Source of the DNA: an uncultured Methanosarcinales archaeon
GTDB taxonomy: Archaea; Nanobdellota; Nanobdellia; Woesearchaeales; JABIAG01
DNA length: 64,000 bases
NCBI GenBank assembly: GCA_964544335.1
Contig: CAZJAJ010000001.1
Location: 29,199-93,198 of the forward strand
Direction of reading: 5' to 3'
Part shown: positions 3,681 through 48,431 of the stretch, piece by piece
Position numbering within the stretch: position 1 is the first letter of the stretch
Layout: each line of letters opens with the position of its first letter
Notes under the pieces: model-generated
What the model was told of the DNA's origin: nothing
Database searches by the model: none
Seen by the model: only the letters and a program-made list of their open reading frames with translations
Translations under genes and position numbers: made by a program

Positions 3681-3681
3681 G

Positions 3682-4194
3682 TTATATATGATACTCTCTT
3701 CCGGGAACATCATTGTGTTCTTCAAAACCAAATCGATTCTTTTTCTTCTCTTCTTTATGATGTACGTCTGAGTGGTACGGTCTGTTTTCAGGTTGTTGTT
3801 GATACGAATCTTGTGAGGACGAATCAGATGTTTGGTATGCTCTGGTTTCAGGTGCGTTTTGACTACTACCATACAATTGTTGATGCGTTGAACTTTGATA
3901 GAATTCATCAACAGCAGTTGAATCAGAAGGACGATCAAGCTCAATATCTGAAACAATCTCTTCTATACTTTCTGTTGATGCCTCTTCCACAGTTGCATCC
4001 TCCGTGGTTTCTTTTTTTGTAGGTTTTTCTTCTTTAAGTCTGTGAGATATATCCTCTAATTCTTTTTGCTCTAGTTCTTTTTCAGCAGATGCGATATGAA
4101 TAAGTAATTCAGGATCTTCTTCTTGTTCATAGAGCTCGCGAAGTTTTTTTAATCGCTCCTTAAGAGGAAGTTTAAGTATCTTTTTTAGATCCAT
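3682..4194 (-). CDS. hypothetical acidic low-complexity protein
   Basis: ORF; E/D/S/Q-rich. Confidence 0.35.
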   Translation of the reverse strand: MDLKKILKLPLKERLKKLRELYEQEEDPELLIHIASAEKELEQKELEDISHRLKEEKPTKKETTEDATVEEASTESIEEIVSDIELDRPSDSTAVDEFYQSSTHQQLYGSSQNAPETRAYQTSDSSSQDSYQQQPENRPYHSDVHHKEEKKKNRFGFEEHNDVPGREYHI

Positions 4195-4233
4195 AAGAGA
4201 AGATACACTATTTTACTTTTAAAATAAACGTAT

Positions 4234-5856
4234 TTACCAAGAAATATGCCCATGAGATTTTTTATAGAATCGCGAGAGCAAATAACATTTTTGCATGGAG
4301 TGTTTCTTTGCTTTTGCAAAATCTCCTTTATTTGGCCCTCTTGTCTTAGGTGTAGAAGCAACACGAAATTTAAATGGTTCAACAAAGAGACCAAATCCTT
4401 TTACCACTTCTGTAAATGGACTAAGCACAGAATCATTACTTACTTTTTTTTGCATATCTTGTTGCTTGATCTTCACCACTTTCCCTGTTCGCTTATCTAT
4501 TTTGTATTTTGGTCCAGTGTAGCCAGGAACAACTGGATCAGGTTCATCTTCTTTTTCATCAAGATAGTGCATAATGTCAGCTTTCATAGAATCCATAGCC
4601 TCATGTATACCCATATCAATATCCTTGAGTAATTCCATGTCCTCTTCTTCTTTCATTTTAACATAGTTTTCAATTTGTTCTTTTGTCCATGCATACGACT
4701 TAAGATTCATTTCAAGTTTTCCCATCATTACGGATCGTCGCTCTTGCGAATTTGGAACGTACTCCATGTGCGGAAATGTTCTAAAACTAAAATTAACCAG
4801 CACCACAGAGTTTGCTGTGCCAATAGGACGTACTCCAAGATATTCTATTTCAATAAGTTGATTTTCAAATGCAGAAACAAGTTCTGGGCTTTTTGAAAGA
4901 CTGCTGTTTGGCGTGAGTGTTTTGATATTTTTCAAATAAGGTTTTACCCACTGCATATAGAGTTTAATATTATTGTAATGTTGTTTAAGATAGCTTTTAT
5001 ACAGCTTTCTATACGTCTTTAGTTGGTCATATGTTCTAAATTTCCAACTGTAATACTCAGATAATTTTCGCTCCAAGACATCTTTGAATGTTTTGTTTCC
5101 AAATTTTTGCTTTTGCATAAATGGATGAATGTTCTTTTTTACTTCCTCAAGCGTTTTACCAGGTACTCGTGTTTGAAAAAAGAGTGATGGTAGTGTAACA
5201 AAGTTAAAATTCTGCGCCATACCAAAAATACTTGCCGGATTTTTTGGTCCTCCTTCAACAAGATCTGCATATTGTCCTTTAAGTACAATTTCTCCATCTT
5301 GGGCAGTGTTTGGATCATCGCCAAAAGTTTGTTTATAATATCCTAATTTTTCATCAACAATGTTAAGATCACGAATAAGTTGGAACATAGTTTTAGTCAT
5401 CTCAGCAATAAAACGAAGATATTGTGCTGCTCGATCCTGTTGAATTGATAGACGTTGTGCAGAAACACCCCAGTACGTACTTAATTCAGATGCTGAAAAC
5501 ACATCAGATATCTTGATCATGTCTTTTGCGTTAAATCCATGATCGTGCATCATTTGGCCAAGGATCCAGTAATAACTCTCCTCAACACTGAGTTGATAAT
5601 TTTGATGCACTAAACGATAATTTCTGAGTGACTTAGGATACCCACTAAATTCTGGCTTATATCCTGCATTATTAAAATCAGATTGAAAATGCATGAACTC
5701 AGGATCACTAAAATCCTTTGCGTCAAAGACAAATGACTCGTCTTTTCGTAGCTTTTTTCTCTCTTGCACACTCATGTGACCAAATTTAGCCTTTCCTGCT
5801 GAGTTCAAGAAGCCATAATCAAAGAGGAGCTCGTGCGTAACCATGGGTATTTTCAA
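4234..5856 (-). CDS. large hypothetical protein (540 aa), no recognised domain
   Basis: Long uninterrupted ORF with coding-like composition. Confidence 0.4.
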   Translation of the reverse strand: MKIPMVTHELLFDYGFLNSAGKAKFGHMSVQERKKLRKDESFVFDAKDFSDPEFMHFQSDFNNAGYKPEFSGYPKSLRNYRLVHQNYQLSVEESYYWILGQMMHDHGFNAKDMIKISDVFSASELSTYWGVSAQRLSIQQDRAAQYLRFIAEMTKTMFQLIRDLNIVDEKLGYYKQTFGDDPNTAQDGEIVLKGQYADLVEGGPKNPASIFGMAQNFNFVTLPSLFFQTRVPGKTLEEVKKNIHPFMQKQKFGNKTFKDVLERKLSEYYSWKFRTYDQLKTYRKLYKSYLKQHYNNIKLYMQWVKPYLKNIKTLTPNSSLSKSPELVSAFENQLIEIEYLGVRPIGTANSVVLVNFSFRTFPHMEYVPNSQERRSVMMGKLEMNLKSYAWTKEQIENYVKMKEEEDMELLKDIDMGIHEAMDSMKADIMHYLDEKEDEPDPVVPGYTGPKYKIDKRTGKVVKIKQQDMQKKVSNDSVLSPFTEVVKGFGLFVEPFKFRVASTPKTRGPNKGDFAKAKKHSMQKCYLLSRFYKKSHGHISW

Positions 5857-5895
5857 AATGTTGTGCTATTTATATGTTGTGATAGAAAAAAGAGA

Positions 5896-6174
5896 CTATT
5901 TGCTCTTTTTTTCTTCATCTTCTTTTTTCTTATGAGCCAATTTACCTACCTGAATGGTTGCAATGACTGCAATAAGCGTTACAAGAATTGCATATACCCA
6001 AGGGCCAGTCTCAGAGAGTGAGCAGAGTGGTCCTGCATTCTCAACGCCGCATGGACCTTCAAAAAGTGATTTTATTGCATCATTCCACGCAAGTGCGGCC
6101 ACAAGACCAAATGCCGCAGTTATGAGTGCTGCTAATTTATCTTCAACTTCTGCTTTAACACGAGATACTTTCAT
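5896..6174 (-). CDS. small membrane protein
   Basis: Two hydrophobic helices; K/E-rich C-terminus. Confidence 0.35.
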   Translation of the reverse strand: MKVSRVKAEVEDKLAALITAAFGLVAALAWNDAIKSLFEGPCGVENAGPLCSLSETGPWVYAILVTLIAVIATIQVGKLAHKKKEDEEKKSK

Positions 6175-6254
6175 GCGTTTTTGTTAAAAAAAGAGGTATT
6201 TAAATCTTATGTCTGCACAGAAGATATATAAATCACAAAGAAACACACTACACC

Positions 6255-6599
6255 ATGAGTATGAAACAAACCATCATTATGCGAGCAGATCTTAAGCTTC
6301 CTAAAGGAAAAGCAGCAGCACAGGCAGCGCACGCTTCAGTTGAGGCAACCCTTCGAAGTGATAAAGCAGAGGTAAAAGAGTGGCGATCTGAAGGAATGGC
6401 TAAAATTGTCCTTAAAGTAGCAGATGAGAAGGAGCTGCTTAAATATAATCAACTCGCAAAAGACGCAGGTCTTGTTACTGCTGTCATTACCGATGCAGGA
6501 CACACCGTTGTTGCACCTGGCACGAGAACATGCATGGCAGTTGGTCCTGCAGATGAAGAGAAATTGGATGCATTATTTGGTGAGTTGAAACTGTTGTAA
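6255..6599 (+). CDS. pth2: peptidyl-tRNA hydrolase, archaeal/eukaryotic PTH2 type
   Basis: IIMRADLKLPKGKAAAQAAHASV matches the PTH2 signature (RtDL..gKGKiaAQc.HA). Confidence 0.85.
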   Translation: MSMKQTIIMRADLKLPKGKAAAQAAHASVEATLRSDKAEVKEWRSEGMAKIVLKVADEKELLKYNQLAKDAGLVTAVITDAGHTVVAPGTRTCMAVGPADEEKLDALFGELKLL

Positions 6600-6624
6600 A
6601 GAAAATTCTAAAAAAATAAATCTT

Positions 6625-6894
6625 TTATTCTGTGTGATTATTTTCCATGTGATCATCTTCCATATGGTTCTCTTCCATGTGTTCTTCATCATGGTCATCT
6701 TCCATAGCATGATCTTCATCTGAATGGTTGTCATCCATATGATCACCTTCCATGTGTTCATCATGATCTTCTGCTGCATGGTCACTTATACCATCACCGT
6801 CATGATCATGATTATCAACAAGATCAGTACTACATCCCACTACAAACAATAAAGAAAGTAGCATACCTAACAATAATAACATATATTTTTTCAT
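6625..6894 (-). CDS. His/Asp/Glu-rich secreted lipoprotein, putative metal-binding (zinc) protein
   Basis: Lipobox LLFVVGCST, then repeated H-D/E motifs (EDHDEHMEGDHMDDNHSDEDH...); directly adjacent to a ZIP transporter. Confidence 0.6.
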   Translation of the reverse strand: MKKYMLLLLGMLLSLLFVVGCSTDLVDNHDHDGDGISDHAAEDHDEHMEGDHMDDNHSDEDHAMEDDHDEEHMEENHMEDDHMENNHTE

Positions 6895-6903
6895 TTTTTC
6901 CCC

Positions 6904-7806
6904 CTAATGACTATGCCCAGGTGCATAGATGGTAAGTGCGATAATAATTCCAACACCAAGAAGTATTGCAAATACATGTAATACGGTATCTTTAACTCCA
7001 TGGTGTCTGTGCAGTTGTGGGACTAAACTAGATGCTGCGATATACAGAAAATTTCCAGCAGCAATTGCAAGTATTATTCCTGTTGCACCACTAATTTTTT
7101 CAATAAGCACATACCCCACAATTACCCCCAATATTGCAAAGAGTGCTGAAAAGAAATTGAAGATTAATGCCTTTGTTTTAGAAAGTCCTGCATAGAGTAA
7201 AATGCCAAAGTCTGCTACTTCCATTGGTATCTCGTGAAGTACAATTGAAATAGTGGCTCCAATACCAAGTGGGACGCTCACTGCATAACTTCCTGCAATA
7301 ACTAGTCCATCAATAAAATTATGAAACCCTTCACCTAGAAGATTAAGTGGTGCCAGGTGGTATGCGTGACCATGAACATGGCATTCAACATCATGATCGT
7401 GATCATGGTCGTGGTGATGAATTTCTTTGTCATGATGATGGTGATGCGAATGTACAAATTTTTCAACAATAAACATCAATAAGAATCCTCCAATGATGTA
7501 AAGCACGGTCCCAATAGTGTAAGAATGTGCAAGTAATTCAGGAACAAAATCTATAAAAACAATGGATAAGAGTACACCTACAGAAAGGCTCAGTAAGAAA
7601 AGAAGCAAACGTTCTGAAATTTTCTTTTTAAGAAGCAGTGGAACTATAGCAACCACTGATACTAATGATACAATAATTGCACTACTGATTGATAATATAA
7701 GTGTCATGCATTCATGAGATGGGATATCTTTATAAAGTTTAATGATTCTCATTCTCAATAAGAATGAAAACACGACAGACACGGCAAAAAGAGATACTTC
7801 AAGCAA
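6904..7806 (-). CDS. zupT: ZIP family metal (zinc) transporter, ZupT-like
   Basis: HNFIDGLVIA and HEIPMEVADFGILL motifs; His-rich loop HHHHHDKEIHHHDHDHDHD; multiple TM segments. The likely true start is the internal MTLILS at about 7707. Confidence 0.85.
   Translation of the reverse strand: MLEVSLFAVSVVFSFLLRMRIIKLYKDIPSHECMTLILSISSAIIVSLVSVVAIVPLLLKKKISERLLLFLLSLSVGVLLSIVFIDFVPELLAHSYTIGTVLYIIGGFLLMFIVEKFVHSHHHHHDKEIHHHDHDHDHDVECHVHGHAYHLAPLNLLGEGFHNFIDGLVIAGSYAVSVPLGIGATISIVLHEIPMEVADFGILLYAGLSKTKALIFNFFSALFAILGVIVGYVLIEKISGATGIILAIAAGNFLYIAASSLVPQLHRHHGVKDTVLHVFAILLGVGIIIALTIYAPGHSH
7749..7767. promoter_or_regulatory. candidate Zur/Fur operator (perfect 7-5-7 inverted repeat TCATTCT-CAATA-AGAATGA)
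   Basis: Perfect palindrome in the divergent region between the ZIP transporter and the Fur-family regulator; overlaps the regulator ATG. Embedded in AATGATTCTCATT, resembling the Fur box half-site GATAATGATAATCATTATC. Confidence 0.5.
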
Positions 7807-9648: not shown

Positions 9649-10146
9649 CTATTCTACGACAAAGCGTGGGTTTGTTTGCGTAATAGTTACAGAGGAATCT
9701 GAACACGTCAGTAATTCATTACCAGAAAGTTCAAGTGGAATAAGCGTTACTTCATACACCCGTTCTACTTCATCACTATTTACAATGGTTTTTACAATTC
9801 CTACATCAAATGGTGCAAGCTGTTGGCTTACTTGCTGTGTGTATCCTTGTGTGTAGTCGTTATTAAAGAATTTGAGTAAGAATCCATCTATTGCAACACC
9901 TTGATTATCTATGGTAACTAATACAGAATTATCTGCAGTCGTGTATTTTACGGTTTTCACACTATAGGAAAGTGCACTACAAGAGCTTTCAGGAAGTCCG
10001 CCTGCTTGCGTAACATAATCTTGACCAAGACTCATGACAATTGATCCAAGTGCTACAGCAACTGCGATAAGAAAAATGGTTGCAATGAGCGGTGATATTC
10101 CTCTATTATTCATGACGTAATCTCTCCTTTTCGTGAAACAATACAC
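9649..10146 (-). CDS. archaeal type IV pilin-like protein (class III signal peptide)
   Basis: MNNRGISPLIATIFLIAVAVALGSIV N-terminus typical of prepilin-peptidase substrates; the likely start is MNNRG. Confidence 0.6.
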   Translation of the reverse strand: MYCFTKRRDYVMNNRGISPLIATIFLIAVAVALGSIVMSLGQDYVTQAGGLPESSCSALSYSVKTVKYTTADNSVLVTIDNQGVAIDGFLLKFFNNDYTQGYTQQVSQQLAPFDVGIVKTIVNSDEVERVYEVTLIPLELSGNELLTCSDSSVTITQTNPRFVVE

Positions 10147-10309
10147 AACCCATTATTAAAGCTGATGCAAAGATGAATGAAAACACGGTTGTTCCCGTTC
10201 CCATAATTGTTCCCACATTAATGTAGGAGTGAAGAGCAAAAAGCCCTATGACAATAATAAAAAAAGAGAGAAGTGTATTATAGTAGTGCCCTCGAATGTG
10301 TCTACTCAT
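10106..10309 (-). CDS. small membrane protein
   Basis: Two hydrophobic segments. Confidence 0.25.
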   Translation of the reverse strand: MSRHIRGHYYNTLLSFFIIVIGLFALHSYINVGTIMGTGTTVFSFIFASALIMGCVLFHEKERLRHE

Positions 10310-10338
10310 TACTTCTCTCCATATTCTTCAACATATTT

Positions 10339-10713
10339 TTACCGTGTACTTGCAAGGTACCAAATGTGCTTTAGTGCAACAATAATCACTGCAGGTACCG
10401 TAAATACTAAAATTTTACCAAAGATACCAATAAGTAGATCACCAATACTTACACCGGCAACCATGCCAACTGATCGTAGTGCAACATCACTCATACCTAG
10501 TGCAGTTGCAATGATAAGTACTGTTGCGGTAAACAAAAAGTCTCTTGTTTCCTCACCCGTAATATTAACAATTCCTACTATAACGCCAAGAAGTACCAAA
10601 ACTGATGTAAGTACTGCTTGAACAGCTGAAGTAAATGCGCCTGCTGCAAGTCCAAGGACTAGAGCGATAACAACACCAACAGCAAAAGAATAATTTCCTA
10701 ATCGTTCATCCAT
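10339..10713 (-). CDS. membrane protein, hypothetical
   Basis: Four predicted TM helices. Confidence 0.35.
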   Translation of the reverse strand: MDERLGNYSFAVGVVIALVLGLAAGAFTSAVQAVLTSVLVLLGVIVGIVNITGEETRDFLFTATVLIIATALGMSDVALRSVGMVAGVSIGDLLIGIFGKILVFTVPAVIIVALKHIWYLASTR

Positions 10714-10817
10714 ATGAGATCACCTCTATTTTTTAGCACAAAGTATCGTATATAAGTATTTATCATCACTCTTGAATAGTTGCACATGTTTAAATAAGCC
10801 GTTTGTAGAGGACAGCC

Positions 10818-12179
10818 ATGGGAATTTTCGGCGCATACGATGTACGAGGTGTTTTTCCGGATCATATCAATCCACACCTTGCAGAAAAAATAGGATTAAC
10901 ATTTCCCGACATTGTCTCTGCTAAAAAAGTATTAGTGGGATACGATGCACGGAAAAGTTCACCAAAACTCTACAATGCACTTATCAGTGGCCTTAAAAAA
11001 AGAGGAGTACATGTATTTACTCTAGGTAAATGTTCAAAACCACAATTTTGTTTTTCAGCATTCTTTTATGAATTTGATGCAAGTATCTACATTACTGCGT
11101 CACACAATCCAAGTAAGTATAATGGGTTTAAGTTTCTTGGAAGAAATGGTGTACAAATTGGATACGACCAAGGTCTCAAAAAATTACAGCGCCTTATTCA
11201 TCAAGGTGTATGGCACGAATCACGACATGATGGTTTAGTAGTTAATTTTGATACAAGCATCGATTACGAAATGTTTCTTGAGCGATATCTTATTCCCAAT
11301 ACAGAAACAAAAGTAGTTATTGATGCACTTAATGGTGCGGGCGATAGGGCTTCAAAGCTCATTGCAAAATATACTACGGCAACACTGCTCAATCAAAAAG
11401 CAGATGGATCATTTCCACAAGGAAATCCAAATCCAACGGTTGCAAGTGTTCGAAAAAAACTAGAAGATACGGTCAAGAAAAAGAAAGCAGATATTGGTAT
11501 TGCCTTTGATGGTGATGCCGACCGTGTTGTGTTTGTAAATGAAAAAGGAAAAGTGATTCCACCTGACTTTATTCTCGCACTTCTCATAGACCATCTTGGT
11601 GAAAAGGGAGATAAAGTTGTTGTTGATGCACTGCTCAGTAAAGTAAATGATGAAGAGTGTAAGAACAATAAAATGAAACTCTACCGAAGTAAAGTTGGCA
11701 CATCATACATGATCCACAATATGAAAAAGAAACGAGCACGTTTTGGTGCTGAGTGGTCAGGACATTTTTACTTTGATGAAATAAATCATACCGATTCAGG
11801 AGTGCTTTGTGCAATTCACGTACTCAACATTATGAAGAACACAAAGAAAAAGATTTCTGAACTCATAAAACCATACGAACGCTACACCATTAGTGAAATG
11901 CACAACTATGAAGTTGCAGATAAAGAAAAAGTCATCAAGATGGTTAATGAAAATTTCAAGGGAAAGAAGAGTACACTTGATGGCCTGAGCGTTGAGACCG
12001 ACACATACAAATTTAATATTCGTCCGTCAAATACTGAACCACTACTCAGGTGCAGAATCGAAGGTAAAAATCAAAAAGAGATGGACAAAGTACTTCGAGA
12101 AATTGACATCATAATTGCAAATGTGGGAAAAGAGGTGAAACATGGCAACAAAAAAACGAGCAAAAGCAAAAAAAAGTAA
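10818..12179 (+). CDS. phosphoglucomutase/phosphomannomutase family (GlmM/ManB-like)
   Basis: Active-site TASHNPSKYNGFK; Mg site FDGDADR; Lys-rich C-terminal tail. Confidence 0.85.
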   Translation: MGIFGAYDVRGVFPDHINPHLAEKIGLTFPDIVSAKKVLVGYDARKSSPKLYNALISGLKKRGVHVFTLGKCSKPQFCFSAFFYEFDASIYITASHNPSKYNGFKFLGRNGVQIGYDQGLKKLQRLIHQGVWHESRHDGLVVNFDTSIDYEMFLERYLIPNTETKVVIDALNGAGDRASKLIAKYTTATLLNQKADGSFPQGNPNPTVASVRKKLEDTVKKKKADIGIAFDGDADRVVFVNEKGKVIPPDFILALLIDHLGEKGDKVVVDALLSKVNDEECKNNKMKLYRSKVGTSYMIHNMKKKRARFGAEWSGHFYFDEINHTDSGVLCAIHVLNIMKNTKKKISELIKPYERYTISEMHNYEVADKEKVIKMVNENFKGKKSTLDGLSVETDTYKFNIRPSNTEPLLRCRIEGKNQKEMDKVLREIDIIIANVGKEVKHGNKKTSKSKKK

Positions 12180-13427: not shown

Positions 13428-13802
13428 CTACTGAACAATCAGCAGACCTTTATTTTCTTCAATACGATTACCGTATCCATACATGCCTGTTTCCACTGCA
13501 TCAACAGTAAATACTGCAGTTGCCGTTGCTGGAATTTCTTCTTCGTGTAGGCCTTCAACAATAAAGATCATGTCTTCATTACCAAGATTACTTACTTCGA
13601 ATTGTACGGTGTCGCCTTGTTGTACAGTGATTTGATCAAGTTCTGGTACGCTATCTTCCATTCTTAGGATGATATGGTGTACTTGACCTTCTGTTTCAAC
13701 ATCAACTACCTGAGCATGTACGCTAGTATCTGCTTCAGGAACGTATTGTGTACTGCAACCTACAGCAAACAATAGTAGTGCTAAAATTAGGAATTGTTTC
13801 AT
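13428..13802 (-). CDS. secreted lipoprotein, hypothetical (possibly cupredoxin-like beta fold)
   Basis: Lipobox LLLFAVGCST. Confidence 0.4.
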   Translation of the reverse strand: MKQFLILALLLFAVGCSTQYVPEADTSVHAQVVDVETEGQVHHIILRMEDSVPELDQITVQQGDTVQFEVSNLGNEDMIFIVEGLHEEEIPATATAVFTVDAVETGMYGYGNRIEENKGLLIVQ

Positions 13803-20146: not shown

Positions 20147-20938
20147 TTACTCACTAGAATCACTTGGATCTGCAGAATCAACTGATGCATTTTCCTTTGC
20201 TTTTTCTAATGCTTCTGCTTCTGCAATTATTTGAGGAAGCTCAAAGGTTCTTCGACAAAACTGCATATTTTCAAACGCACTCATTCGCTTACATGCAGAC
20301 GTATCACCATTCATGGCAACCACCCAAAGACAGTTATCCTTACCTGAAGAAAGTTCATCACACGTTGTTTTATTGACGATATTTCCCTCAGAAGGAGGAG
20401 ATGGTGTGAATCGAAGTTCATCAAATGCATTACGATAGCAAAACTCCTTGCCTGTTACTTGATAAGTGTGATTTGCATCCTCTCTAAAGTTATACACAAA
20501 TTCGGTAGCATTATCACAATAGATAATGGACTCGTCAGTAACATTCTTATCAATGAGATGAATGAGGCACGCATCCCTGAGTATCATGATAGATTCATTT
20601 TCTGCATGATCGATGAAATCACCAAGGCGTGTTGCATTAAATGCATCTTGCTCACTATACGATAAGCAAGATTCAGGAGTGGTAAGTGATGAGAAAAAGA
20701 GATCAAGTGCATCAGGTTCTTTTACTGGTTCTGATGCAGAACATCCTACGAGCAATAGTGCACATATAGCGACGATAACAAGCAGTGTGTGTTTCATGCA
20801 AAAACCTGAATATTTCTCCTTAATAAATATTACGACGATAGGAATAAAAGAATAAGATTTATAAAAGGATCTGGGTTTCAGGAAGACATGATCACACGAA
20901 AACGATCCAATAGAAAAGCTACAACCGGTAGATACCAC
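20147..20938 (-). CDS. Cys-rich secreted lipoprotein, hypothetical
   Basis: Internal start MKHTLLVIVAICALLLVGCSAS (lipobox); many Cys; acidic C-terminus. Confidence 0.45.
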   Translation of the reverse strand: MVSTGCSFSIGSFSCDHVFLKPRSFYKSYSFIPIVVIFIKEKYSGFCMKHTLLVIVAICALLLVGCSASEPVKEPDALDLFFSSLTTPESCLSYSEQDAFNATRLGDFIDHAENESIMILRDACLIHLIDKNVTDESIIYCDNATEFVYNFREDANHTYQVTGKEFCYRNAFDELRFTPSPPSEGNIVNKTTCDELSSGKDNCLWVVAMNGDTSACKRMSAFENMQFCRRTFELPQIIAEAEALEKAKENASVDSADPSDSSE

Positions 20939-21304: not shown

Positions 21305-21760
21305 ATGTGGAATCCTTTTAAGAAAAAATCCGACTCATTTGATGACGATGGATTAGATAGTCCTTTCTCAGGAGAGGGCAAATACCCACCAGGCGCAGAT
21401 CCAATGCAATCACCATTTCCTTCTAGTAACGATATGGGAAGTTCAGATCCATTCTCAAGACCTGATCCACTTGGAACGCCATCATTTCCACCAAGCATGG
21501 GACAACAAGAACAAATGCCTTCTTTTCCATCTCAAGAACCTATGAGACCTACACCAAATGGGTTTGGAAATCCACGGCCTATTTTATCTGAAGAACGACC
21601 ACTACCATCAGTACCACCTGTGCAACAATCAAATACCGGTGATAAAATGGAAGTAGTTATTGCAAAACTTGATAGTCTTAGATCCATGATGGATGTTATG
21701 AACCAGCGTATTGCGAATCTTGAAAATAAACTGGGTAATAACAACAATAGACAATGGTAA
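21305..21760 (+). CDS. Pro-rich low-complexity protein with C-terminal coiled coil, hypothetical
   Basis: ORF; P/S/F repeats then a heptad-like C-terminus. Confidence 0.35.
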   Translation: MWNPFKKKSDSFDDDGLDSPFSGEGKYPPGADPMQSPFPSSNDMGSSDPFSRPDPLGTPSFPPSMGQQEQMPSFPSQEPMRPTPNGFGNPRPILSEERPLPSVPPVQQSNTGDKMEVVIAKLDSLRSMMDVMNQRIANLENKLGNNNNRQW

Positions 21761-22185
21761 AGAATTTCTGGCACATCATCGTGAGCATAGTTGCACTTGA
21801 TCAAATCACTAAAGCACTTGTTGCAACATATACTCCAAATATTTCACTGCTTCCTTTCTTTTCATTAGTTACCGTAAAAAATTATGGTGCGGGATTTGGC
21901 ATTCTACAAGGACAACAATACATTCTTATTGCCATTTCACTTCTGGTACTTGCAGGTATTGTGTACTTTAGAAAAAGTATTGCAAAAGAAGATCATCTTG
22001 CGTTTGCATTAATCACTGGCGGACTTATTGGAAATCTTATTGATAGAATTTTTCGCAGATATGTGATTGATTTCTTTGATTTTTTTATTGGAACCTATCA
22101 CTGGCCTGCGTTTAATGTTGCAGATATTGCACTTGTTGTTGGTGTTGCATTGTTGATTATTAACGAAATAAGAAAGAAGAAATAG
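21754..22185 (+). CDS. lspA: lipoprotein signal peptidase (signal peptidase II)
   Basis: ALDQITK, NYGAGFG, GGLIGNLIDR, VIDFFDF and FNVADIAL match all conserved LspA blocks. Confidence 0.85.
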   Translation: MVKNFWHIIVSIVALDQITKALVATYTPNISLLPFFSLVTVKNYGAGFGILQGQQYILIAISLLVLAGIVYFRKSIAKEDHLAFALITGGLIGNLIDRIFRRYVIDFFDFFIGTYHWPAFNVADIALVVGVALLIINEIRKKK

Positions 22186-27099: not shown

Positions 27100-27765
27100 C
27101 TATTTACCAAAGTTTCGTGTTCGTTCTTTAAATTGTGCTACAATGTCTGCAATATGTTCATTGGTGAGTGCTGGCCAAAATGTTTCTGGAAAGAACCATT
27201 CTGAGTATGCAGACTGCCAGAGTAAAAAGTTTGAAATTCTTTTTGCACCACCGGTTCGAACAACAATATCGGGATTATCGTTCATGTCAAGTAATTCTGC
27301 AAAAGTTTCTTCGGTTACCTCTTGTCCATTGTTGATTGCTTTGTTACATGCACGAACTATTTCATCTCGCCCACCATATCCAAAACAAAAATTAAGTTTG
27401 AGTGGACCGTGTGATCCTTGTTCTAAATCTGCAATCATCGTTTGCATATCTTTTGGAAATAGTGCAGGATTTCCAAGAAAGGAAATAGTGTATTTTTCTT
27501 TTGTTTCTGGCGTGTTAAATTTTTTGAAATATTCTCTAAAGAGATCAAAGATCACTTTTTTTTCTATTGCTGTTCGATTAAAATTTTCAGTTGAAAAGAG
27601 ATAAAATGTTAATGCTCTTGCTCCTTGTTCTTTGCAATACTCTATGACACGCTCAAGTGTTTTTGCACCTTCAAGATGTCCTTCTAGTTTGGATTTACCA
27701 ACTGAAACAGCCCATCGCCGATTGCCATCGCAAATAAATGCAAGGTGTAGATCTTTACATAACAT
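27100..27765 (-). CDS. uppS: undecaprenyl diphosphate synthase (cis-prenyltransferase)
   Basis: FICDGNRRWA, YLFSTENFNR and RTGGAKRISNFLLWQSAYSEWFF match UPPS. Confidence 0.85.
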   Translation of the reverse strand: MLCKDLHLAFICDGNRRWAVSVGKSKLEGHLEGAKTLERVIEYCKEQGARALTFYLFSTENFNRTAIEKKVIFDLFREYFKKFNTPETKEKYTISFLGNPALFPKDMQTMIADLEQGSHGPLKLNFCFGYGGRDEIVRACNKAINNGQEVTEETFAELLDMNDNPDIVVRTGGAKRISNFLLWQSAYSEWFFPETFWPALTNEHIADIVAQFKERTRNFGK

Positions 27766-28848: not shown

Positions 28849-28899
28849 TTCTATCCTCTAGACAAGAAGATTTATAAAATATCAACCCTTCAAGAGTGT

Positions 28900-30159
28900 A
28901 TGGTAAAACCTGGAGATCTTGTTCGTGTAAAGACTGAAAATGATGTCTTTGAGGGGATATATATTGAAAAGCCAACTCTTCTTGGGAGCGACACCATTGT
29001 ACTTAAACTAGAACACGGATATAATATTGGGATTGATAAAAATAAGATCAAAGATATTAAGCTCCTTAAGGAAGGGACAAAGAAAAACGTAAAACACAGT
29101 CCACTTCCGGTTGATGAAAAACTTCCTACAGTACTTATTCTTTCTACGGGAGGGACTATTTCTTCTAAAGTAGATTATACTACGGGCGGTGTTCTTGCAG
29201 AGTATGATGCACGAGACTTTGTTGAGATGTGTCCTGAACTTACATCTATTGCAAACATTCAAGCAGAACGAGTCATGCAAATTATGTCAGAAGATATCAG
29301 CACTGCTGATTGGAGCGCAATTGCTGAGGTGATTGCTGATAAAATCCAGAAAGTGGATGGTATTGTGATGACTATGGGAACAGATACACTTGCATATACT
29401 GCAGCTGCCATGTCATTTGCACTTACACTTGGAAAACCTGTTGTGATTACTGGAGCTCAGCGAAGTATTGATCGTGGTTCTTCTGATGCGTTTTTCAATC
29501 TTATTTGTGCTGTAAAAGCTGCTGCAGAATGGGATGGTGCAGAAGTAGTTACGTGTATGCACGGGACATCTGCTGATGATCACTGTTTACTACTTAGAGG
29601 AACAAAGGTAAGGAAAATGCATGCTTCACGAAGAGATGCATTTAGACCTATTAATACACGACCTCTTGCCAAGGTAACACCTACAAGTATTACTCCTGGA
29701 AATATTCCATATCATAAACGAAGTAAACAAAAATGTAGTGCTTCAAGTGTATTTTCTGCAGATGTAGCACTGGTGTATGCACATCCGGGAATGAAACCAG
29801 ACGTACTTGATACCTACAGATCATACAAAGGGATTATTATTGCAGGTACAGGTTTTGGACATGTACCTATTCAATTATATGATAGAATTAAAGAGCTTGT
29901 TGATACGGGCGTGTTTGTTGGACTCACTACGCAGTGTTTGTATGGTGCAACCTCTGCAACAGTATACAGTCCACTACGACGACTTTCTCTTGAAATAGGT
30001 GTTACGTATCTTGGAGATATGCTTCCTGAAACAGCATTTGCTAAGCTCTCTTGGGCTGCAGGAAAATCAACTACAGACGAAGAAATTAAAAAGATCATGA
30101 CTGATACTATGAGACATGAGTCAAATGATCGCCAAGATTTCAATGACTTTTTGAACTAA
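28900..30159 (+). CDS. gatD: Glu-tRNA(Gln) amidotransferase subunit D
   Basis: N-terminal GDLVRV domain then asparaginase-like ILSTGGTISS and TMGTDTLAYTAAA. Confidence 0.85.
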   Translation: MVKPGDLVRVKTENDVFEGIYIEKPTLLGSDTIVLKLEHGYNIGIDKNKIKDIKLLKEGTKKNVKHSPLPVDEKLPTVLILSTGGTISSKVDYTTGGVLAEYDARDFVEMCPELTSIANIQAERVMQIMSEDISTADWSAIAEVIADKIQKVDGIVMTMGTDTLAYTAAAMSFALTLGKPVVITGAQRSIDRGSSDAFFNLICAVKAAAEWDGAEVVTCMHGTSADDHCLLLRGTKVRKMHASRRDAFRPINTRPLAKVTPTSITPGNIPYHKRSKQKCSASSVFSADVALVYAHPGMKPDVLDTYRSYKGIIIAGTGFGHVPIQLYDRIKELVDTGVFVGLTTQCLYGATSATVYSPLRRLSLEIGVTYLGDMLPETAFAKLSWAAGKSTTDEEIKKIMTDTMRHESNDRQDFNDFLN

Positions 30160-30160
30160 A

Positions 30161-31258
30161 ATGAAAGCTCAATGGTTTATTCGCGTATTTTTAGTAGGAT
30201 ATCATGTACTACTTTTTACATTACTACCTACCTACATCATTCTTTTTGGAGTACCCAGTATTAGTATTGTACTGTGGACCGTTTTCTTGTTTGCAGCATG
30301 TAATTTATCCATTACTACAGGATATCACAGGTTGTATGCACATAGAAGTTATAATGCATCAAAAATCGTTGAGGTTCCACTCTTATTTTTCTCCACATTA
30401 AGTCTGCAGGGAAGCGCTATTGCATGGAGTGCTGACCACAGAACGCACCACAGGCATGTTGATACAGATAAAGACCCATATAATATTGAGCGTGGGTTTT
30501 GGTATGCACACATGGGATGGTTATTTGAAGACCGTGTTGTTGATATTACCAATGTAAAGGATTTACAACAGCAAAAAATGCTCATGATACAGCACAAGTA
30601 CTACATTCTTCTTGCAACACTTGCAAATGTAGTAGTTACAGTTGGGCTTGGAATGATTTTAGGAGAAGTATTTGCCGCTATTGTCTTTATCTTCTTGCTG
30701 CGCCTATTTTTAACGCATCACACCACGTTTTTCATTAATTCACTTGCGCACACATGGGGCTCTAGGCCATATTCAAGAGAGCATAGTGCAGTCAATAACT
30801 TTGTTATTTCTTTGCTTACATTTGGAGAAGGGTATCATAACTATCATCACACCTTTGCAGGAGATTATAGAAATGGCGTTAGATGGTATCAATATGACCC
30901 TACTAAGCTGCTTATTTGGACCATGAGTAAATGTGGTCTTGCACAAGATCTTAAACGAAGCAATAGATATTCTGCAACACTACGATTAATCAACGAAGAC
31001 AGAAAAGAGATGCTCAATGAAATGAGGTTGAAAGGGATTGCTCGCTATAAGGCAATTGAGTCTGACATACAGCATAAATATAAGATGCTCATAGAAGATC
31101 TTCAGGGTTTGCATCGTCAAGTACAGGCGTATAAAGATGCTGCTCAACTAAAAAAGGATGAGAAACGATTGCTTAAAGCACAAATCAGAAGTCAACGTCT
31201 TCGTGTGAAAAAAAGTTTCAAAGCGTGGTCACTTTTGTGCAAACATGTGTTTGGATAA
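30161..31258 (+). CDS. acyl-CoA (stearoyl-CoA type, delta-9) fatty acid desaturase, membrane
   Basis: Three His boxes HRLYAHR, HRTHHRH and HNYHHTF with TM helices; coiled-coil C-terminal extension. Confidence 0.8.
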   Translation: MKAQWFIRVFLVGYHVLLFTLLPTYIILFGVPSISIVLWTVFLFAACNLSITTGYHRLYAHRSYNASKIVEVPLLFFSTLSLQGSAIAWSADHRTHHRHVDTDKDPYNIERGFWYAHMGWLFEDRVVDITNVKDLQQQKMLMIQHKYYILLATLANVVVTVGLGMILGEVFAAIVFIFLLRLFLTHHTTFFINSLAHTWGSRPYSREHSAVNNFVISLLTFGEGYHNYHHTFAGDYRNGVRWYQYDPTKLLIWTMSKCGLAQDLKRSNRYSATLRLINEDRKEMLNEMRLKGIARYKAIESDIQHKYKMLIEDLQGLHRQVQAYKDAAQLKKDEKRLLKAQIRSQRLRVKKSFKAWSLLCKHVFG

Positions 31259-31982: not shown

Positions 31983-33785
31983 TTATAAGATTTTTTTACG
32001 TTGCGCCCAATCTAATTTTTTCCTTTTTGTTGACCACTCACTCAAAAGAATTGCAGTATTGATGATTGCAATGTGTGTGTATGCTTGTGGAAAATTACCA
32101 AGAAGATGTTTTCCTTTCATGGTGAGATCTTCTGAAAATAATCCTGAATTATTGGCATAGGTTAACATTTGTTCAAAGTATTTTTTTGCTTCCTTGTGTT
32201 TGCCTATATAATGCAATGCATCAATAAGCCAAAATGAACAGATGGTAAATGCACTCGTTGATTTCCCAAAGTCATCTTTGGCATTGTAACGGTGTACCAA
32301 TGGTCCGTTTGCAAGTGTTTTTTTAATTTGCTTAACGGTGCTGATGAGACGTGGATCATCTGGCGGTAAGAATTCATGATAACACATCAAAAGTACTGCT
32401 GCGTCAAGTTCTTCTCCACCGTAATACATCGTGAATGCCTTTGCTTCATCTGACCAGGCGTTGGTGAGAATATCATGGCGAATCTCATCTCGAAGTTTAC
32501 ACCACGCATGTGATTTTGATGTGAGATTACAATAGTCTGCAATTCTAATTGCACGATCGATGCCCACATAACACATGAGTTTTGAGTAGGTAAAGTGTTC
32601 TTTACTTCCACGAAATTCCCAGATGCCGTTGTCTTTTGTTTTCCAGTGTTTTTTTATTTCTCTAACTAATTTTGATAAGTAATTGATGTATCGTTTACTG
32701 AGTTTTTTTTCTACTTGTTGAAATACAAAGTAGATATACATAATATCAATGATATTTCCATAAATGTCATGCTGTTGTTGATCATATGCTGCATTCCCAA
32801 TACGAACGGGAGCAGAGTTTTTGTATCCAGAAAGATGAGGTAAAATTTCTTCGGTAAGCTCAGTTTCACCATGAAGACCATACATGATTTGAAGGTGTAA
32901 TTTTTTCTCGATGCTATGTTCAAAGATAAATTCCATGAGTCGTTTTGCTTCAAAAGAACGCCCTATTTTATTGAGTGCGTCTACAGTGTATGCAGCATCA
33001 CGTACCCAGCAAAATCGATAGTCCCAATTTCTTTCATGCCCTATTTGTTCAGGAAGTGATGTGGTTGCTGCTGCCATGATTGCTCCTGTTTCTGACATGG
33101 TCAAGAGTTTTAGTGTGATTGCAGACCTGATTATTTCTTTTTTGTATCTTTCTGGTGTGTCTAGTGATGCAACCCACTTCTTCCAATAGCGTTTTGTTGC
33201 GGTGAGTAAGTTGAGTGCTCTACGTACTGTGTAATCGCCATCACCATCACCAAAGACAAAATAGGATCGATGTGTTATTTCGATGCATTGTTTTTTGAGT
33301 ATTTGTTTTGGATCAATGTTTGTTTTACAATAGAGTTCTTGTGATGCTTCTTTTGCAAAAAGTCCATCTTCTACTGCAGTGGAAATGGTAATGTTTTTTG
33401 CATAGTTAAGTTTGGGATCAAAGTGAATTTTTACTTTTGGTATTCCTCTGATGGGTTCAAGGATTCGAATCAGTTTATTGATACGATAGACTTTTTGCTT
33501 TTTTTTTGGAAGGATTTTATTGTAGCGTCGAAAAAAATCTAGTACACGAAAAGCATATGCCTTGCAAGTGTACGTTGTTTCTACAATTGCGGTGTCTTCA
33601 ATATACTGTTGCGTTACTGTGCATGCTTGATCTGGTTGTATATGAAATGATCCACCATTCTTTTTATCGAGCAAACGTGCAAAGACACTAGGAGAATCAC
33701 TTTCTGGGTAACAAAACCAATCGATGCTACCCGATGAGTGAACAAGCGCACAGGATTTACAATTTCCTATGATGCCATAATCCAT
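31983..33785 (-). CDS. glycoside hydrolase family 15 (glucoamylase/trehalase-like)
   Basis: N-terminal GIIGNCKSCALV..SIDWFCYPESDSPSVFARLLD is typical of archaeal GH15. Confidence 0.8.
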   Translation of the reverse strand: MDYGIIGNCKSCALVHSSGSIDWFCYPESDSPSVFARLLDKKNGGSFHIQPDQACTVTQQYIEDTAIVETTYTCKAYAFRVLDFFRRYNKILPKKKQKVYRINKLIRILEPIRGIPKVKIHFDPKLNYAKNITISTAVEDGLFAKEASQELYCKTNIDPKQILKKQCIEITHRSYFVFGDGDGDYTVRRALNLLTATKRYWKKWVASLDTPERYKKEIIRSAITLKLLTMSETGAIMAAATTSLPEQIGHERNWDYRFCWVRDAAYTVDALNKIGRSFEAKRLMEFIFEHSIEKKLHLQIMYGLHGETELTEEILPHLSGYKNSAPVRIGNAAYDQQQHDIYGNIIDIMYIYFVFQQVEKKLSKRYINYLSKLVREIKKHWKTKDNGIWEFRGSKEHFTYSKLMCYVGIDRAIRIADYCNLTSKSHAWCKLRDEIRHDILTNAWSDEAKAFTMYYGGEELDAAVLLMCYHEFLPPDDPRLISTVKQIKKTLANGPLVHRYNAKDDFGKSTSAFTICSFWLIDALHYIGKHKEAKKYFEQMLTYANNSGLFSEDLTMKGKHLLGNFPQAYTHIAIINTAILLSEWSTKRKKLDWAQRKKIL

Positions 33786-44854: not shown

Positions 44855-45376
44855 ATGGTCGATAAAAACGAACAATTACAAGAAGAACAAAAGAATGACG
44901 TGCTAGAAGAAGCACTTGATAACGCAAAAAGACAAGCAGAACACAACACCGATGACAAAGTCAAAGAACTCACCTCTACTATACAACACCTCCAAGCTGA
45001 CTTTGAGAACTATCGGAAACGAACAGAAAAAGAGCGAGTAGAACTCAAAAGTCTCTTCAAAAAAGACTTTCTCAAAAATATGCTCCCTACGTTAGATATG
45101 TTTGATCTTGCACTACAGCATAAAAGCAACCATGAAGAATTCCTTAAGGGAGTTGAAATGATTTACGCTCAATTTCTAGGAACACTAGAAAGCGAAGGCG
45201 TTGAAGAAATTAAAGACACAGAAAACTTCAACCCAAGCAAACACGAAGCTGTACTTACCGATGATGGTGAGGATGGCAAGATCCTAGAAGTATTACAAAA
45301 AGGCTACACGCTCAATGGTGAAGTTATCCGATGCACCAGAGTTAAAGTAGGTAAACAACCAAAGGAGACGCAATAA
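44855..45376 (+). CDS. grpE: nucleotide exchange factor GrpE
   Basis: [15 protein letters not shown]... core GrpE motifs; upstream of dnaK. Confidence 0.9.
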
Positions 45377-45377
45377 A

Positions 45378-47207
45378 ATGGCAGAACAAGGAAAAGCAAT
45401 TGGAATTGATTTAGGTACAACGTTTTCTGCAGTTGCAGTAATCGAAGGTGGTAAACCAACCATTATACCTAATGCAGAAGGAGATAGAACAACACCATCA
45501 GTAGTACTTATCAAAGACGGAGAGAGAACCGTTGGTAAGCACGCACGAAATCAGGCAGTAATGAATCCTGAACATACCATTAGATCCATTAAACGATTGA
45601 TGGGTACTGATGAAAAAGTAAACATTGATGGAAAAGACTACTCACCACAAGAAGTATCAGCAACTATTCTACAAAAACTCAAAGCAGATGCTGAAAGCTA
45701 CCTTGGAAGAAAAGTTACTGATGCAGTCATTACCGTTCCAGCATACTTTAATGATGCTGAACGTCAAGCAACAAAAGATGCTGGGAAAATTGCAGGTCTA
45801 AATGTACTTAGAATTGTAAACGAACCAACCGCAGCATCTTTAGCATACGGGCTTGACAAATCACAAGACCACACCGCACTTGTATTTGATTTTGGTGGAG
45901 GTACGTTTGATGTATCTGTACTAGAACTTGGCGATGGCGTCTTTGAAGTAAAATCTACTGCAGGAGATAATAGACTTGGTGGAGATGATGTTGACCAAGT
46001 AATTATTGACAAACTCGCAGAAGACTTCAAGAAAGAACAAAATATTGATCTTAGATCTGATAAGCAAGCACTACAGCGACTTAAAGAAGCTGCAGAAAAA
46101 GCAAAAATTGAACTGAGTTCAAAACCAACAACTGATGTAAACCTTCCGTTCATCACCTCCGATGCAAACGGTCCAAAACACCTTACTCGAACCATTAAAC
46201 GAGCTGAGTTTGATCAATGGATTCAAACAATCCTTGACAAGCTCAAAGGACCAACACAGCAAGCAATCAAAGATGCTGGCGATGTAAAAATTGACAAAGT
46301 AATCCTGGTAGGTGGTTCAACACGAATCCCTGCAGTACAAGACATTGTTAAGAAGATTACTGGCATTGACCCTGACAAATCCGTTAACCCTGATGAGGCA
46401 GTAGCACTTGGTGCTGCAGTACAAGCAGGTATTCTTGGCGGAGAAGTAAAGGATGTATTGCTTCTTGATGTTACACCTCTAAGCCTTGGTATTGAAACAC
46501 TCGGTGGTGTTTTTACCAAATTAATTGAGCGAAACACCACCATTCCTACCAAGAAGTCTCAGATCTTCTCTACTGCAGCAGACAATCAACCTGCAGTAAC
46601 AGTTCGAGTCTTCCAAGGGGAACGATCCATGGCAGCAGACAATAAACTGCTTGGTCAATTTGATCTTGAAGGTATTCCACCAGCACCACGAGGTGTTCCA
46701 CAAATTGAGGTGACATTTGATATCGATGCAAATGGTATCGTAAATGTTAAAGCAGTGGACAAAGGAACCAATAAAGAGCAAAAGATCACCGTGACCGGTT
46801 CTAGTAACCTAAGCGATGATGAGATCAAGAAGATGCAGGAAGCTGCAGAACAACACGCTGAAGAGGATAAGAAAAAAGCAGAAGAAGTAATCCTCTACAA
46901 TGAAGTGGATAACTTGATCTATCAGTCTGAGAAGATGAAAGATGAGTACAAGGATAAACTTGATAAAGCTCAGCTTGAAGAACTCGATAAAGAACTTGAG
47001 GAAATCAAGAAACTTCGTGACGAAAAGAATACAGACGCACTTAAAGCAAAGATGGACGAATTAAACAAAAAGGTCCAAGAGATGGGCGCGGCTATGTATA
47101 AACAGCAAGCAGAAGCTGCTGCTCAAAATCCTGATGAAAAGAAGGATGATGGCGTTGTTGATGCTGAAGTGGTTAACGAAGAGAAGACTGACGATAAAAA
47201 AGAATGA
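45378..47207 (+). CDS. dnaK: molecular chaperone DnaK (Hsp70)
   Basis: [34 protein letters not shown] and EEVD-like acidic tail. Confidence 0.97.
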
Positions 47208-47360
47208 ATGAAGCAATAACTATTGCTGCTCTTCTTCTTATTTTTCTTTTTGTAAGAAGAGTTGTTAAGAATTCGATGATCTCTGCAAAAAAAACGCGAA
47301 TCATCAAAGATGAATTACTTGACATAGTGAACAATCCAAAGTACAAAGTGAGGGGCAAGT

Positions 47361-48431
47361 ATGAGTAAGGACTATTACAAGATTCTTGGTGTTGAAAAAA
47401 ACGCATCTAAAGAAGAGATTAAGAAAGCATACAAGAAACTTGCAAAAAAATACCACCCTGATTTAAACAAAGACGACCCAGAAGCCGAAGCAAAGTTCAA
47501 GGAAGCATCAGAGGCTGCTGCAGTACTTGGCGATGAGCAAAAGAGGCAACATTACGATCAATTTGGCACCGCAGATAATCCTTTTGGCGGTGGACAAGGC
47601 GGTCAAGGGTTTTCTGGATTTGAAGATATCTTCGGAGACATTTTCTCTGGTTTTGGCGGATTTGGTGGAAGAGGTAATCGACGGCCAACACGAGGAAACG
47701 ATCTACAGTACGAATTATCAATTACGCTCGAAGAAGCATACAAGGGCGTTGAAAAACAAATTAAAATTCCTAAATACGATACTTGCAAAGCATGTTCTGG
47801 TTCTGGTGCAAAGTCACCTGATGCAGTAGATACCTGTGGTACATGTCATGGACAAGGTGTGGTGAATAGACAAACACGAACACCGTTTGGTGTGTTTAAT
47901 ATGCAATCCACCTGTCCTTCCTGTAAGGGAGATGGAAAAACAATTACTGATCCGTGTATGGAGTGTCATGCAAGCGGTAGAGTTGAAGTAACCAAAAATA
48001 TCAAAGTTAAAATTCCAGCAGGTGTGCACACCCGTTCACAACTACGTGTTGCAGGCGAAGGAGAGGCAGGAGAACATGGCGTACCACCTGGCGATTTGTA
48101 TGTATTTATCCACGTAGAACAACACGATGTATTTACACGAAAGAATGATGACATCATAATCAAACATCAAATTCCATTTTCCATGGCAGCACTTGGCGGA
48201 GAAATTGATGTGCCAACACTTGATGGCAAAGCAACACTCAAAGTACCTGCAGGGACCACTGCTGGAACTATTCTAAGAATGAAAGGACGAGGTATCCCAC
48301 ACCTTGGCAGGTCATCATCTGGTGATTTACATGTGGTGATTGACATCCAAGTACCTAAGAAAGTGTCCAAAAAAGCACGAAAGCTCCTTGAAGATCTTGA
48401 CAAAGAGATTGAGAAGAAGGGCTGGTTCTAA
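47361..48431 (+). CDS. dnaJ: molecular chaperone DnaJ (Hsp40)
   Basis: J domain with HPD (KKYHPDLNK), G/F-rich region, four CxxCxGxG repeats. Confidence 0.95.

Follow-up and report, generated by a model that had tools for sequence, protein, structure and literature searches.

Human stearoyl-coenzyme A (CoA) desaturase 1 (SCD1) coordinates its metals through H120, H125, H157, H160, H161, N265, H269, H298, H301, and H302, and hydrogen bonds between Q147, W153, and T261 bend its substrate tunnel, turning C9-C10 to the metals (PMC8533217, in which H157 is printed HIS127). Aerobic single-enzyme Δ9 routes are also found in prokaryotes, where two enzymes of Pseudomonas aeruginosa provide functional models for both substrate classes: DesA desaturates 16:0 at sn-2 of existing phospholipids, while DesB, which works with the DesC reductase, acts on acyl-CoA (PMC10634369). 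Bacterial acyl-lipid genes have been reported in DPANN archaea as well, namely FabG, FabI, FabZ, and cyclopropane-fatty-acid synthase in Woesearchaeota, with next-best matches that are bacterial (Zhang et al., mBio 2024, PMC10936187). Here, we analyze a gene predicted to encode a membrane fatty-acyl desaturase in a Woesearchaeon, that is, in the same phylum. It lies in a 64,000-nucleotide (nt) stretch of contig CAZJAJ010000001.1 (assembly GCA_964544335.1), hereafter the window. A homolog has already been labeled "fatty acid desaturase [Candidatus Woesearchaeota archaeon]" in public databases, and similar genes are annotated automatically in Woesearchaeota metagenome-assembled genomes (MAGs). 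Our literature search found no SCD-type desaturase discussed in DPANN or other archaea, and the study of the Fab genes, whose MAGs come from oxygen-deficient zones, mentions no SCD-type O2-dependent desaturase (PMC10936187). The gene probably encodes an O2-dependent di-iron integral-membrane acyl desaturase of the Δ9 class, which a Woesearchaeal (DPANN) lineage would have acquired from bacteria and inherited vertically since. What the data show directly is homology and fold, the set of ligands, that the host is an archaeon, and that the gene is resident there and conserved under purifying selection.

Active site and fold of the desaturase

The open reading frame (ORF) starts with ATG, is uninterrupted, and encodes a protein of 365 amino acids (aa) (the coordinates of this and other features of the window are listed in Table 1). 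The protein matches Pfam PF00487 (FA_desaturase) with an E-value of 1.1e-22 and 81.5 bits, against a cut-off of 29.7. A phmmer search of all PDB chains recovered human SCD1 (4zyo, E=1.7e-43), mouse SCD1 (4ymk, 5.9e-43), and nothing else, in an alignment that covers residues 26-275 with 33% identity over ~250 aligned positions, and the similarity to SCD-type enzymes is thus far beyond chance. The original prediction, made by a model from the DNA sequence, had labeled the protein "stearoyl-CoA-type," which holds at the level of fold and active site only. Against the NCBIfam equivalog for the DesA family (NF049918, cut-off 400 bits), our protein scores 76.3 bits, and ten homologs, archaeal as well as bacterial, score 51-98 bits, all of them well short. 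A carotenoid (β-carotene ketolase), sterol desaturase/hydroxylase, or alkane-hydroxylase identity was rejected, since there is no such Pfam or NCBIfam match and both the sequence search and the fold search of solved structures lead to SCD1 alone. The carotenoid or sterol clade had been named, together with the original prediction, as the place where the protein might belong instead.

The three histidine boxes described in that prediction read back exactly, as HRLYAHR (aa 56-62), HRTHHRH (aa 93-99), and HNYHHTF (aa 226-232), and they follow the HX4H, HX2HH, HX2HH pattern in order and spacing (aa 56-61, 93-97, and 226-230). A fourth SCD1-type ligand motif, NSLAH (aa 193-197), contributes N193 and H197, which align to human N265 and H269. 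The complete ligand set consists, as in SCD1, of nine histidines and one asparagine (H56, H61, H93, H96, H97, N193, H197, H226, H229, and H230, matching in this order the SCD1 ligands listed above), all of which are invariant across 62 homologs. Moreover, the Q147-W153-T261 triad that kinks the tunnel of SCD1 aligns to Q83, W89, and T189, and is conserved in the archaeal clade to which the protein belongs (see below). Since both the ligands and the kink triad match SCD1, Δ9 regiochemistry can be inferred on good grounds.

The topology expected for Δ9 desaturases, also part of the original prediction, is visible in the hydropathy profile as two long hydrophobic blocks (aa 5-54 and 147-192), one on either side of the first cytoplasmic region. 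An AlphaFold2 (AF2) model built on 62 homologs, with a mean predicted local distance difference test score (pLDDT) of 90 and a predicted TM-score (pTM) of 0.86, resolves these blocks into helices 2-29, 34-60, 148-167, and 170-199. In a Foldseek comparison of the model with the PDB, only SCD1 entries were significant (E=6e-13 to 3e-12), with a target-normalized TM of 0.71-0.74. The modeled protein therefore has four membrane helices arranged as two hairpins and, overall, the SCD1 fold. Judged by sequence and model, every structural feature of the SCD-fold "first-desaturase" family is present. There are, however, clear differences from SCD1: the protein lacks the N-terminal extension, the basic loop after His box 2 is shorter, a helical tail of ~95 aa is added at the C terminus, and the host is an archaeon, which has no endoplasmic reticulum and in whose window neither cytochrome b5 nor b5 reductase is seen.

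The tail begins where the alignment with SCD1 stops, near aa 273-275, and has no counterpart in that enzyme. The AF2 model places three helices there, at aa 269-291, 296-325, and 332-364, and the block-mean pLDDT lies mostly between 79 and 97. The helices are amphipathic, the a/d heptad positions being 0.67-0.89 hydrophobic vs. 0.39-0.43 overall, and the last one, which has a net charge of +9, holds a tryptophan (W356) that is invariant among homologs. A coiled-coil C-terminal extension had been part of the original prediction; the extension is real and helical, but it is a three-helix coiled-coil-like tail rather than a single coiled coil. All 62 aligned sequences (the window protein and 61 largely bacterial homologs) have a tail, 85-148 aa in length, and bacterial homologs from labeled genomes align to about residue 363. 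Because it is found in all 61 homologs aligned, mostly bacterial, the tail is a feature of these homologs and no archaeal novelty. It might, speculatively, serve to dock an acidic electron donor or to contact the membrane surface.

Taken together, these elements suggest how the enzyme would work. Four transmembrane (TM) helices would anchor a cytoplasmic cap, in which the nine histidines and one asparagine would bind two iron ions. The substrate, a saturated C16-C18 acyl chain, would enter the tunnel bent by the Q83-W89-T189 triad, with C9-C10 facing the metals, and O2 together with two electrons from a soluble donor would then remove two hydrogens, leaving a cis-Δ9 double bond.

Table 1. Positions of the desaturase, its parts, and other features in the window (numbered from its first nucleotide)
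Feature	Position	Strand	Basis
Predicted SCD-fold Δ9-type ("first desaturase") membrane fatty-acyl desaturase	30161..31258 incl. stop codon	+	ORF, PF00487, SCD1, AF2, Foldseek
His box 1, HRLYAH (H56, H61)	30326..30343	+	invariant in 62 homologs; aligns to SCD1 HRLWSH
His box 2, HRTHHRH (ligands H93, H96, H97)	30437..30457	+	invariant; SCD1 alignment
His box 3, HNYHHTF (ligands H226, H229, H230)	30836..30856	+	invariant; SCD1 alignment
Q83 and W89 of the tunnel-kink triad	30407..30427	+	align to human SCD1 Q147, W153; invariant in archaeal clade
TM1-TM2 hairpin (aa 2-60)	30164..30340	+	hydropathy block aa 5-54; AF2 helices 2-29, 34-60
TM3-TM4 hairpin (aa 148-199), incl. T189 and NSLAH (N193, H197)	30602..30757	+	AF2 helices 148-167, 170-199
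C-terminal tail (aa 269-365), three amphipathic helices	30965..31255	+	AF2; heptads; charge; kept in 62 sequences
gatD, Glu-tRNA(Gln) amidotransferase subunit D, directly upstream of the desaturase	28900..30159	+	NF003217, 477 bits
TATA-box-like TTTATAAA, candidate archaeal promoter, ~25 nt upstream of gatD ATG	28871..28878	+	sequence read directly
Signal peptidase II, LspA	21754-22185	+	PF01252 (Peptidase_A8), E=6.3e-36, 124 bits vs. cut-off 25
Lit-like lipoprotein intramolecular transacylase, 192 aa	48478-49056	+	PF07314, E=5e-10, 40 bits vs. cut-off 24
Four ORFs (at least) with lipobox signal peptides	6625-6894, 13428-13802, 20147-20938, 57753-58184	-	FVVGC/S, FAVGC/S, LLVGC/S, ICAGC/S
ZupT-like zinc transporter	6904-7806		
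cis-Prenyltransferase	27100-27765		
GH15 trehalase/glucoamylase-like gene	31983-33785	-	TreH1-like, 384 bits, below equivalog cut-off
GrpE-DnaK-DnaJ bacterial-type chaperone cluster	44855-48431	+	DnaK 912 bits to bacterial equivalog
Asparagine-synthase-like/Dph6 fusion, 679 aa	49784-51823	+	TIGR01536; TIGR03679 (aa 458-676)
RNase HII paralogs	58965-59603, 60015-60668	-	E=5e-24, 2e-41
ORF of 146 aa with archaeal type IV pilin-like signal	61602-62042	-	MVNNRGQAALEFLMTYGWAILVV at start; no Pfam match

Archaeal residence and probable bacterial ancestry of the gene

The contig, which at NCBI spans 350,984 bp and carries both the desaturase and GatD, is archaeal and belongs to Woesearchaeota. GatD exceeds the NF003217 cut-off of 310 bits, scores 441 bits against TIGR02153 (gatD_arch), and has only Candidatus Woesearchaeota, Nanoarchaeia, or Nanoarchaeota among its best named homologs. 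Further archaeal markers in the window are a SbcD_rel_arch phosphoesterase, a Dph6_archaeal domain, a type II methionyl aminopeptidase, and an Arch_GlmM-like mutase, and ribosomal proteins S8e and L44e, PTH2, and S-layer proteins are encoded as well. An LSM gene was recognized by tblastn to the Pfam-annotated LSM gene of a related locus (L083, described below), with 92% aa identity, while a match to the Gins51 C-terminal domain is weak and below threshold. With GatD, S8e, L44e, LSM, PTH2, Dph6, and the type II methionyl aminopeptidase in one window, the bacterial contig that would have undone the original prediction is not what we find. When the window was scanned for sigma-70 promoters, promoter-like sites were fewer than in shuffled controls and terminator-like sites about equal in number, which amounts to no signal, as expected for an archaeon.

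Within this contig, the desaturase gene is tightly embedded. A single nucleotide separates the gatD stop codon from the desaturase ATG (TAA-A-ATG), and at the other end the desaturase gene, stop codon included, runs right up to the end of the convergent phosphoesterase gene, with a gap of 0 nt. Direct reading of the sequence revealed no motif comparable to TTTATAAA between gatD and the desaturase. Since this TATA-box-like element precedes gatD and none precedes the desaturase, the two genes are probably co-transcribed, as a leaderless bicistronic transcript, and the desaturase would be expressed jointly with gatD from an archaeal TATA promoter.

The closest homolog with genomic context (P0121, ~64% identity) is found in two other assemblies, on loci L083 (Logan ERR4674684) and L084 (ENA ERZ807171), in which the gene order is LSM, S8e, LspA, cis-prenyltransferase, hypothetical, GatD, desaturase, phosphoesterase, AsnC, helix-turn-helix (HTH), methyltransferase, and SufE. 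Between the window and L083, 13 genes are colinear at 58-92% aa identity (64% for the desaturase, 79% for GatD). In the database, the L083 desaturase has been given too late a start (P0121, 350 aa). With the ATG at 9956 (gene at 9956-11053), the N terminus matches that of another homolog, P0002, and once the start is re-read there the gatD-desaturase junction becomes TAG-G-ATG, likewise 1 nt. Because the 1-nt junction and the 13 colinear genes recur in an independent assembly, and because the archaeal sequences form a clade with a bootstrap of 100, the desaturase gene is a resident of the archaeal chromosome and not a contaminant.

It might be argued, the family being overwhelmingly bacterial and the nearest non-archaeal relatives only ~50% identical, that bacterial DNA was misjoined to the archaeal contig through chimeric assembly or mis-binning. 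This explanation is effectively refuted by the position of the gene between archaeal genes, with the minimal gaps given above, by the recurrence of junction and gene order in L083 and L084, both assembled separately from other samples, by a GC content (0.380) equal to that of the window (0.375), and by a sister subclade that lies in a different, equally archaeal context.

One spot nearby is variable. Between the phosphoesterase and AsnC genes, the window carries a trehalase/glucoamylase-like gene of family GH15, instead of which L083 has sulfotransferase and CorA genes after the desaturase, making this a variable island.

The phylogeny was computed by neighbor joining, with 100 bootstraps, from 202 sequences (top database matches, taxon-labeled GTDB loci, and human SCD1 as outgroup) and 370 columns after trimming. 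The window protein clusters with P0002 and P0003/P0121 (bootstrap 99), and this group joins P0006/P0122 and P0010 with a bootstrap of 100. The resulting clade comprises seven archaeal sequences, all of them Woesearchaeal, and is nested in an otherwise bacterial family, which is the outcome of the phylogenetic placement that accompanied the original prediction as a proposed check. Some members are incomplete as called: P0003, an N-terminal fragment, starts only after His box 1, and the gene calls of P0006 and P0010 (314 aa) are too short at the N terminus, the full form beginning at GTG 9821 in locus L085. The second archaeal subclade adjoins an operon for an A-type ATPase whose genes follow the archaeal order, H-I-K-E-C-F-A-B-D. 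Its AtpA has its best named matches in Woesearchaeota and Nanobdellota and is 71% identical to an AtpA (P0256) on the window's own contig. The desaturase copy of this second subclade has a TATA box of its own, TTTAAATATATA, ~25 nt before the GTG start.

Archaeal clade members that span the ligand positions keep every ligand despite having diverged to 55-65% identity, and the clade shows no specific changes at invariant positions. Such retention across this divergence within a Woesearchaeal clade argues for long vertical inheritance under purifying selection. That the gene might instead be a decaying or functionless remnant of a past transfer would accord with partner genes not being nearby and with the reductive evolution of DPANN genomes, but it is very unlikely, considering that the frame is intact, that catalytic residues are kept at the divergence just mentioned, and that the junction with gatD, an essential gene, is compact and conserved. 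Streamlined genomes would, in addition, tend to drop useless genes.

Outside the clade, the picture is bacterial. The GTDB species representatives contain 597 stretches coding for relatives; of the 80 best, 77 come from bacteria, with many Chlamydiota and Opitutales/Puniceicoccaceae, as well as Vibrio, Idiomarina, Moraxella, Bacteroidota/Rhodothermia, and two members of the candidate phyla radiation (CPR). Only two of these best 80 are labeled archaeal (L042 and L079). The archaeal clade next joins a clade rich in Bacteroidota/Rhodothermia, with a bootstrap of only 32. Other archaeal copies are P0018, on a 338-kb Woesearchaeota contig, and the L042 desaturase, which adjoins archaeal Cbf5; both are placed apart from the seven-member clade, in a tree whose backbone is unsupported. 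The neighborhoods of P0019, P0079, and P0004 were taxonomically uninformative. When metagenome contigs were scanned with the archaeal-clade alignment, no new clade members were seen among the matches listed, the relatives there being at most 51% identical. Transfer from bacteria to archaea is the parsimonious reading of this distribution, and the tree is compatible with one acquisition as well as with several.

In L079 (JABHRS010000025.1, "archaeon SI039_bin19," of ambiguous taxonomy), the desaturase homolog is followed directly, within 3503-6857, by genes for an α/β-hydrolase and an adenylate-forming protein that matches TIGR02155 (phenylacetate-CoA ligase) distantly (34 bits vs. a cut-off of 646). 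These genes could be a small acyl-remodeling cluster.

The desaturase is an ordinary member of a very large bacterial family, and its biochemistry is not new. The SCD-like proteins of this family (Rhodothermia/Bacteroidota, Chlamydiota, Opitutales, Vibrio, Idiomarina, Moraxella, some CPR) are uncharacterized and carry no annotation beyond "fatty acid desaturase" or "stearoyl-CoA desaturase (delta-9 desaturase)." They share with our protein 39-50% full-length identity, including the tail, and the same invariant residues, and they are encoded by stand-alone genes without an adjoining reductase. What sets the archaeal copies apart is that they form their own clade with a bootstrap of 100 and possess archaeal expression signals, either the gatD operon or their own TATA box.

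Substrate, electron supply, and lipid context

Cis-Δ9 desaturation of C16-C18 acyl chains is the function that we consider most likely, and two features of the sequence bear on the form in which such chains would be presented. In the archaeal clade, the basic SCD1 segment RKHPAVKEKG, which follows His box 2, is shortened and acidic, and the arginine of SCD1 "WARDH," next to the same box, is replaced by alanine, serine, or cysteine. Both presumably bind CoA in SCD1. In acyl-lipid "first desaturases," the positively charged residues that bind the CoA head group are lost (PMC5037126). Because the basic loop is shortened and the "WARDH" arginine replaced, we lean slightly toward a lipid-bound (phospholipid) rather than a CoA-bound substrate.

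Nevertheless, as with mammalian SCD1 and P. aeruginosa DesB, the true substrate could be acyl-CoA; the same enzyme would then act on imported free fatty acids after their activation with CoA and before their assembly into lipids or lipoproteins. We consider this a possible reading, although somewhat doubtful. Its closest solved relatives are acyl-CoA enzymes, and "first desaturases" outside plastids are generally acyl-CoA specific (PMC5037126). The His boxes HRxxxH, HRTHH, and HNYHH are SCD1-like, unlike the HRKHH and HNNHH of Pseudomonas DesA (PMC4975390). On the other hand, the altered loop and arginine are the kind of loss that marks acyl-lipid members (PMC5037126), no acyl-CoA synthetase is encoded in the window, and no desC-like reductase adjoins this gene or any homolog.

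Several points weigh against the enzyme as we interpret it. The window contains no gene for fatty-acid synthase (FAS), acyl-CoA synthetase/ligase, or acyltransferase, and no cytochrome b5, ferredoxin, flavodoxin, or DesC-like reductase is found in it or beside the bacterial homologs. A conserved electron-donor neighbor was sought in 79 bacterial loci, which yielded none, the clusters recovered being lineage-specific housekeeping genes, and a motif screen for DesC-like 2Fe-2S/FAD reductases beside homologs gave no matches. Many DPANN are described as anaerobic fermenters, yet a desaturase needs O2. No curated equivalog covers this group of desaturases, none of whose close relatives is characterized, and both the donor and the direction of the transfer are read from a neighbor-joining tree with an unsupported backbone.

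The window does, however, encode proteins linked to bacterial-style lipoproteins. The gene for signal peptidase II, LspA, adjoins those for S8e and LSM and is conserved in L083 (2159-2587), where its product is 65% identical. A second protein resembles Lit, a bacterial lipoprotein-remodeling enzyme that shifts an acyl chain and is unexpected in an archaeon. In addition, at least four ORFs start with lipobox signal peptides. One of these encodes a cupredoxin (PF13473), and another an 89-aa protein that is extremely rich in histidine, aspartate, and glutamate and is encoded directly beside the ZupT-like zinc transporter; this composition and location suggest a metal-binding lipoprotein. [quoted passage not shown]

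These neighbors could also be read as pointing to another substrate for the desaturase fold, such as lipoprotein anchors with their acyl or alkyl chains, alkyl chains in ether linkage, or the isoprenoid chains of archaeol or polyprenols, or even to action as a hydroxylase. Archaeal membranes are isoprenoid ethers, a cis-prenyltransferase gene lies 2.4 kb upstream of the desaturase, and the PF00487 superfamily includes hydroxylases and ketolases (PMC5037126). We regard such a role as improbable. The kink triad and all ligands are of the Δ9 acyl desaturase type, the protein is 45-50% identical over its full length to ordinary bacterial homologs, with invariant positions unchanged in the archaeal clade, and the cis-prenyltransferase gene is transcribed divergently, with another gene in between. 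A methyl-branched isoprenoid would, besides, fit an SCD-type tunnel poorly.

The Δ9 acyl desaturase that we favor would tune the fluidity of fatty-acyl chains, either self-made or, more likely for a DPANN symbiont, obtained from a bacterial or eukaryotic partner. Most DPANN cannot make lipids and are thought to obtain them from hosts, and Woesearchaeota co-vary with bacteria (PMC6349945).

Other genes of the window and implications for Woesearchaeota

A few further genes deserve mention. A 679-aa fusion protein joins a glutamine-dependent asparagine-synthase-like N-terminal part to a Dph6 diphthine-ammonia ligase domain. Two RNase HII paralogs are encoded ~400 bp apart, the first of which is far more divergent. 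The GrpE-DnaK-DnaJ cluster is of bacterial type and probably another old bacterial import. Lastly, the 146-aa ORF that begins with a pilin-like signal is, from its sequence, a probable archaeal pilin or adhesion-filament subunit.

As for the desaturase, the novelty lies in its host and in how far it has been domesticated: the archaeal copies have their own clade, an operon with gatD, and, in the sister lineage, an archaeal promoter. Membrane chemistry separates the domains, archaeal membranes being made of isoprenoid ethers and bacterial ones of fatty-acyl esters. A conserved, vertically inherited gene whose sole known chemistry is fatty-acyl desaturation is direct genomic evidence that fatty-acyl chains matter to these cells, and it makes fatty-acyl lipids in a desaturase-bearing cell plausible. 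The LspA and Lit-like genes in the same window add weight to this finding, and LspA in an archaeal contig bears on the question of archaeal Lgt/Lsp homologs (PMC12462473). The desaturase also implies that the cells meet oxygen. It leads to the hypotheses that these Woesearchaeota associate with bacteria or eukaryotes, and not with archaea, and that they tune scavenged lipids themselves. A bolder proposal, which we put forward as a long shot, is that the lineage maintains bacterial-style fatty-acyl membrane glycerolipids and/or lipoprotein anchors, derived from or shared with a partner and remodeled under oxic conditions by the imported Δ9 desaturase, LspA, and the Lit-like transacylase. If true, these cells would be a natural case of an archaeon that straddles the "lipid divide," and an oxic or micro-oxic lifestyle would be marked by the desaturase as well.

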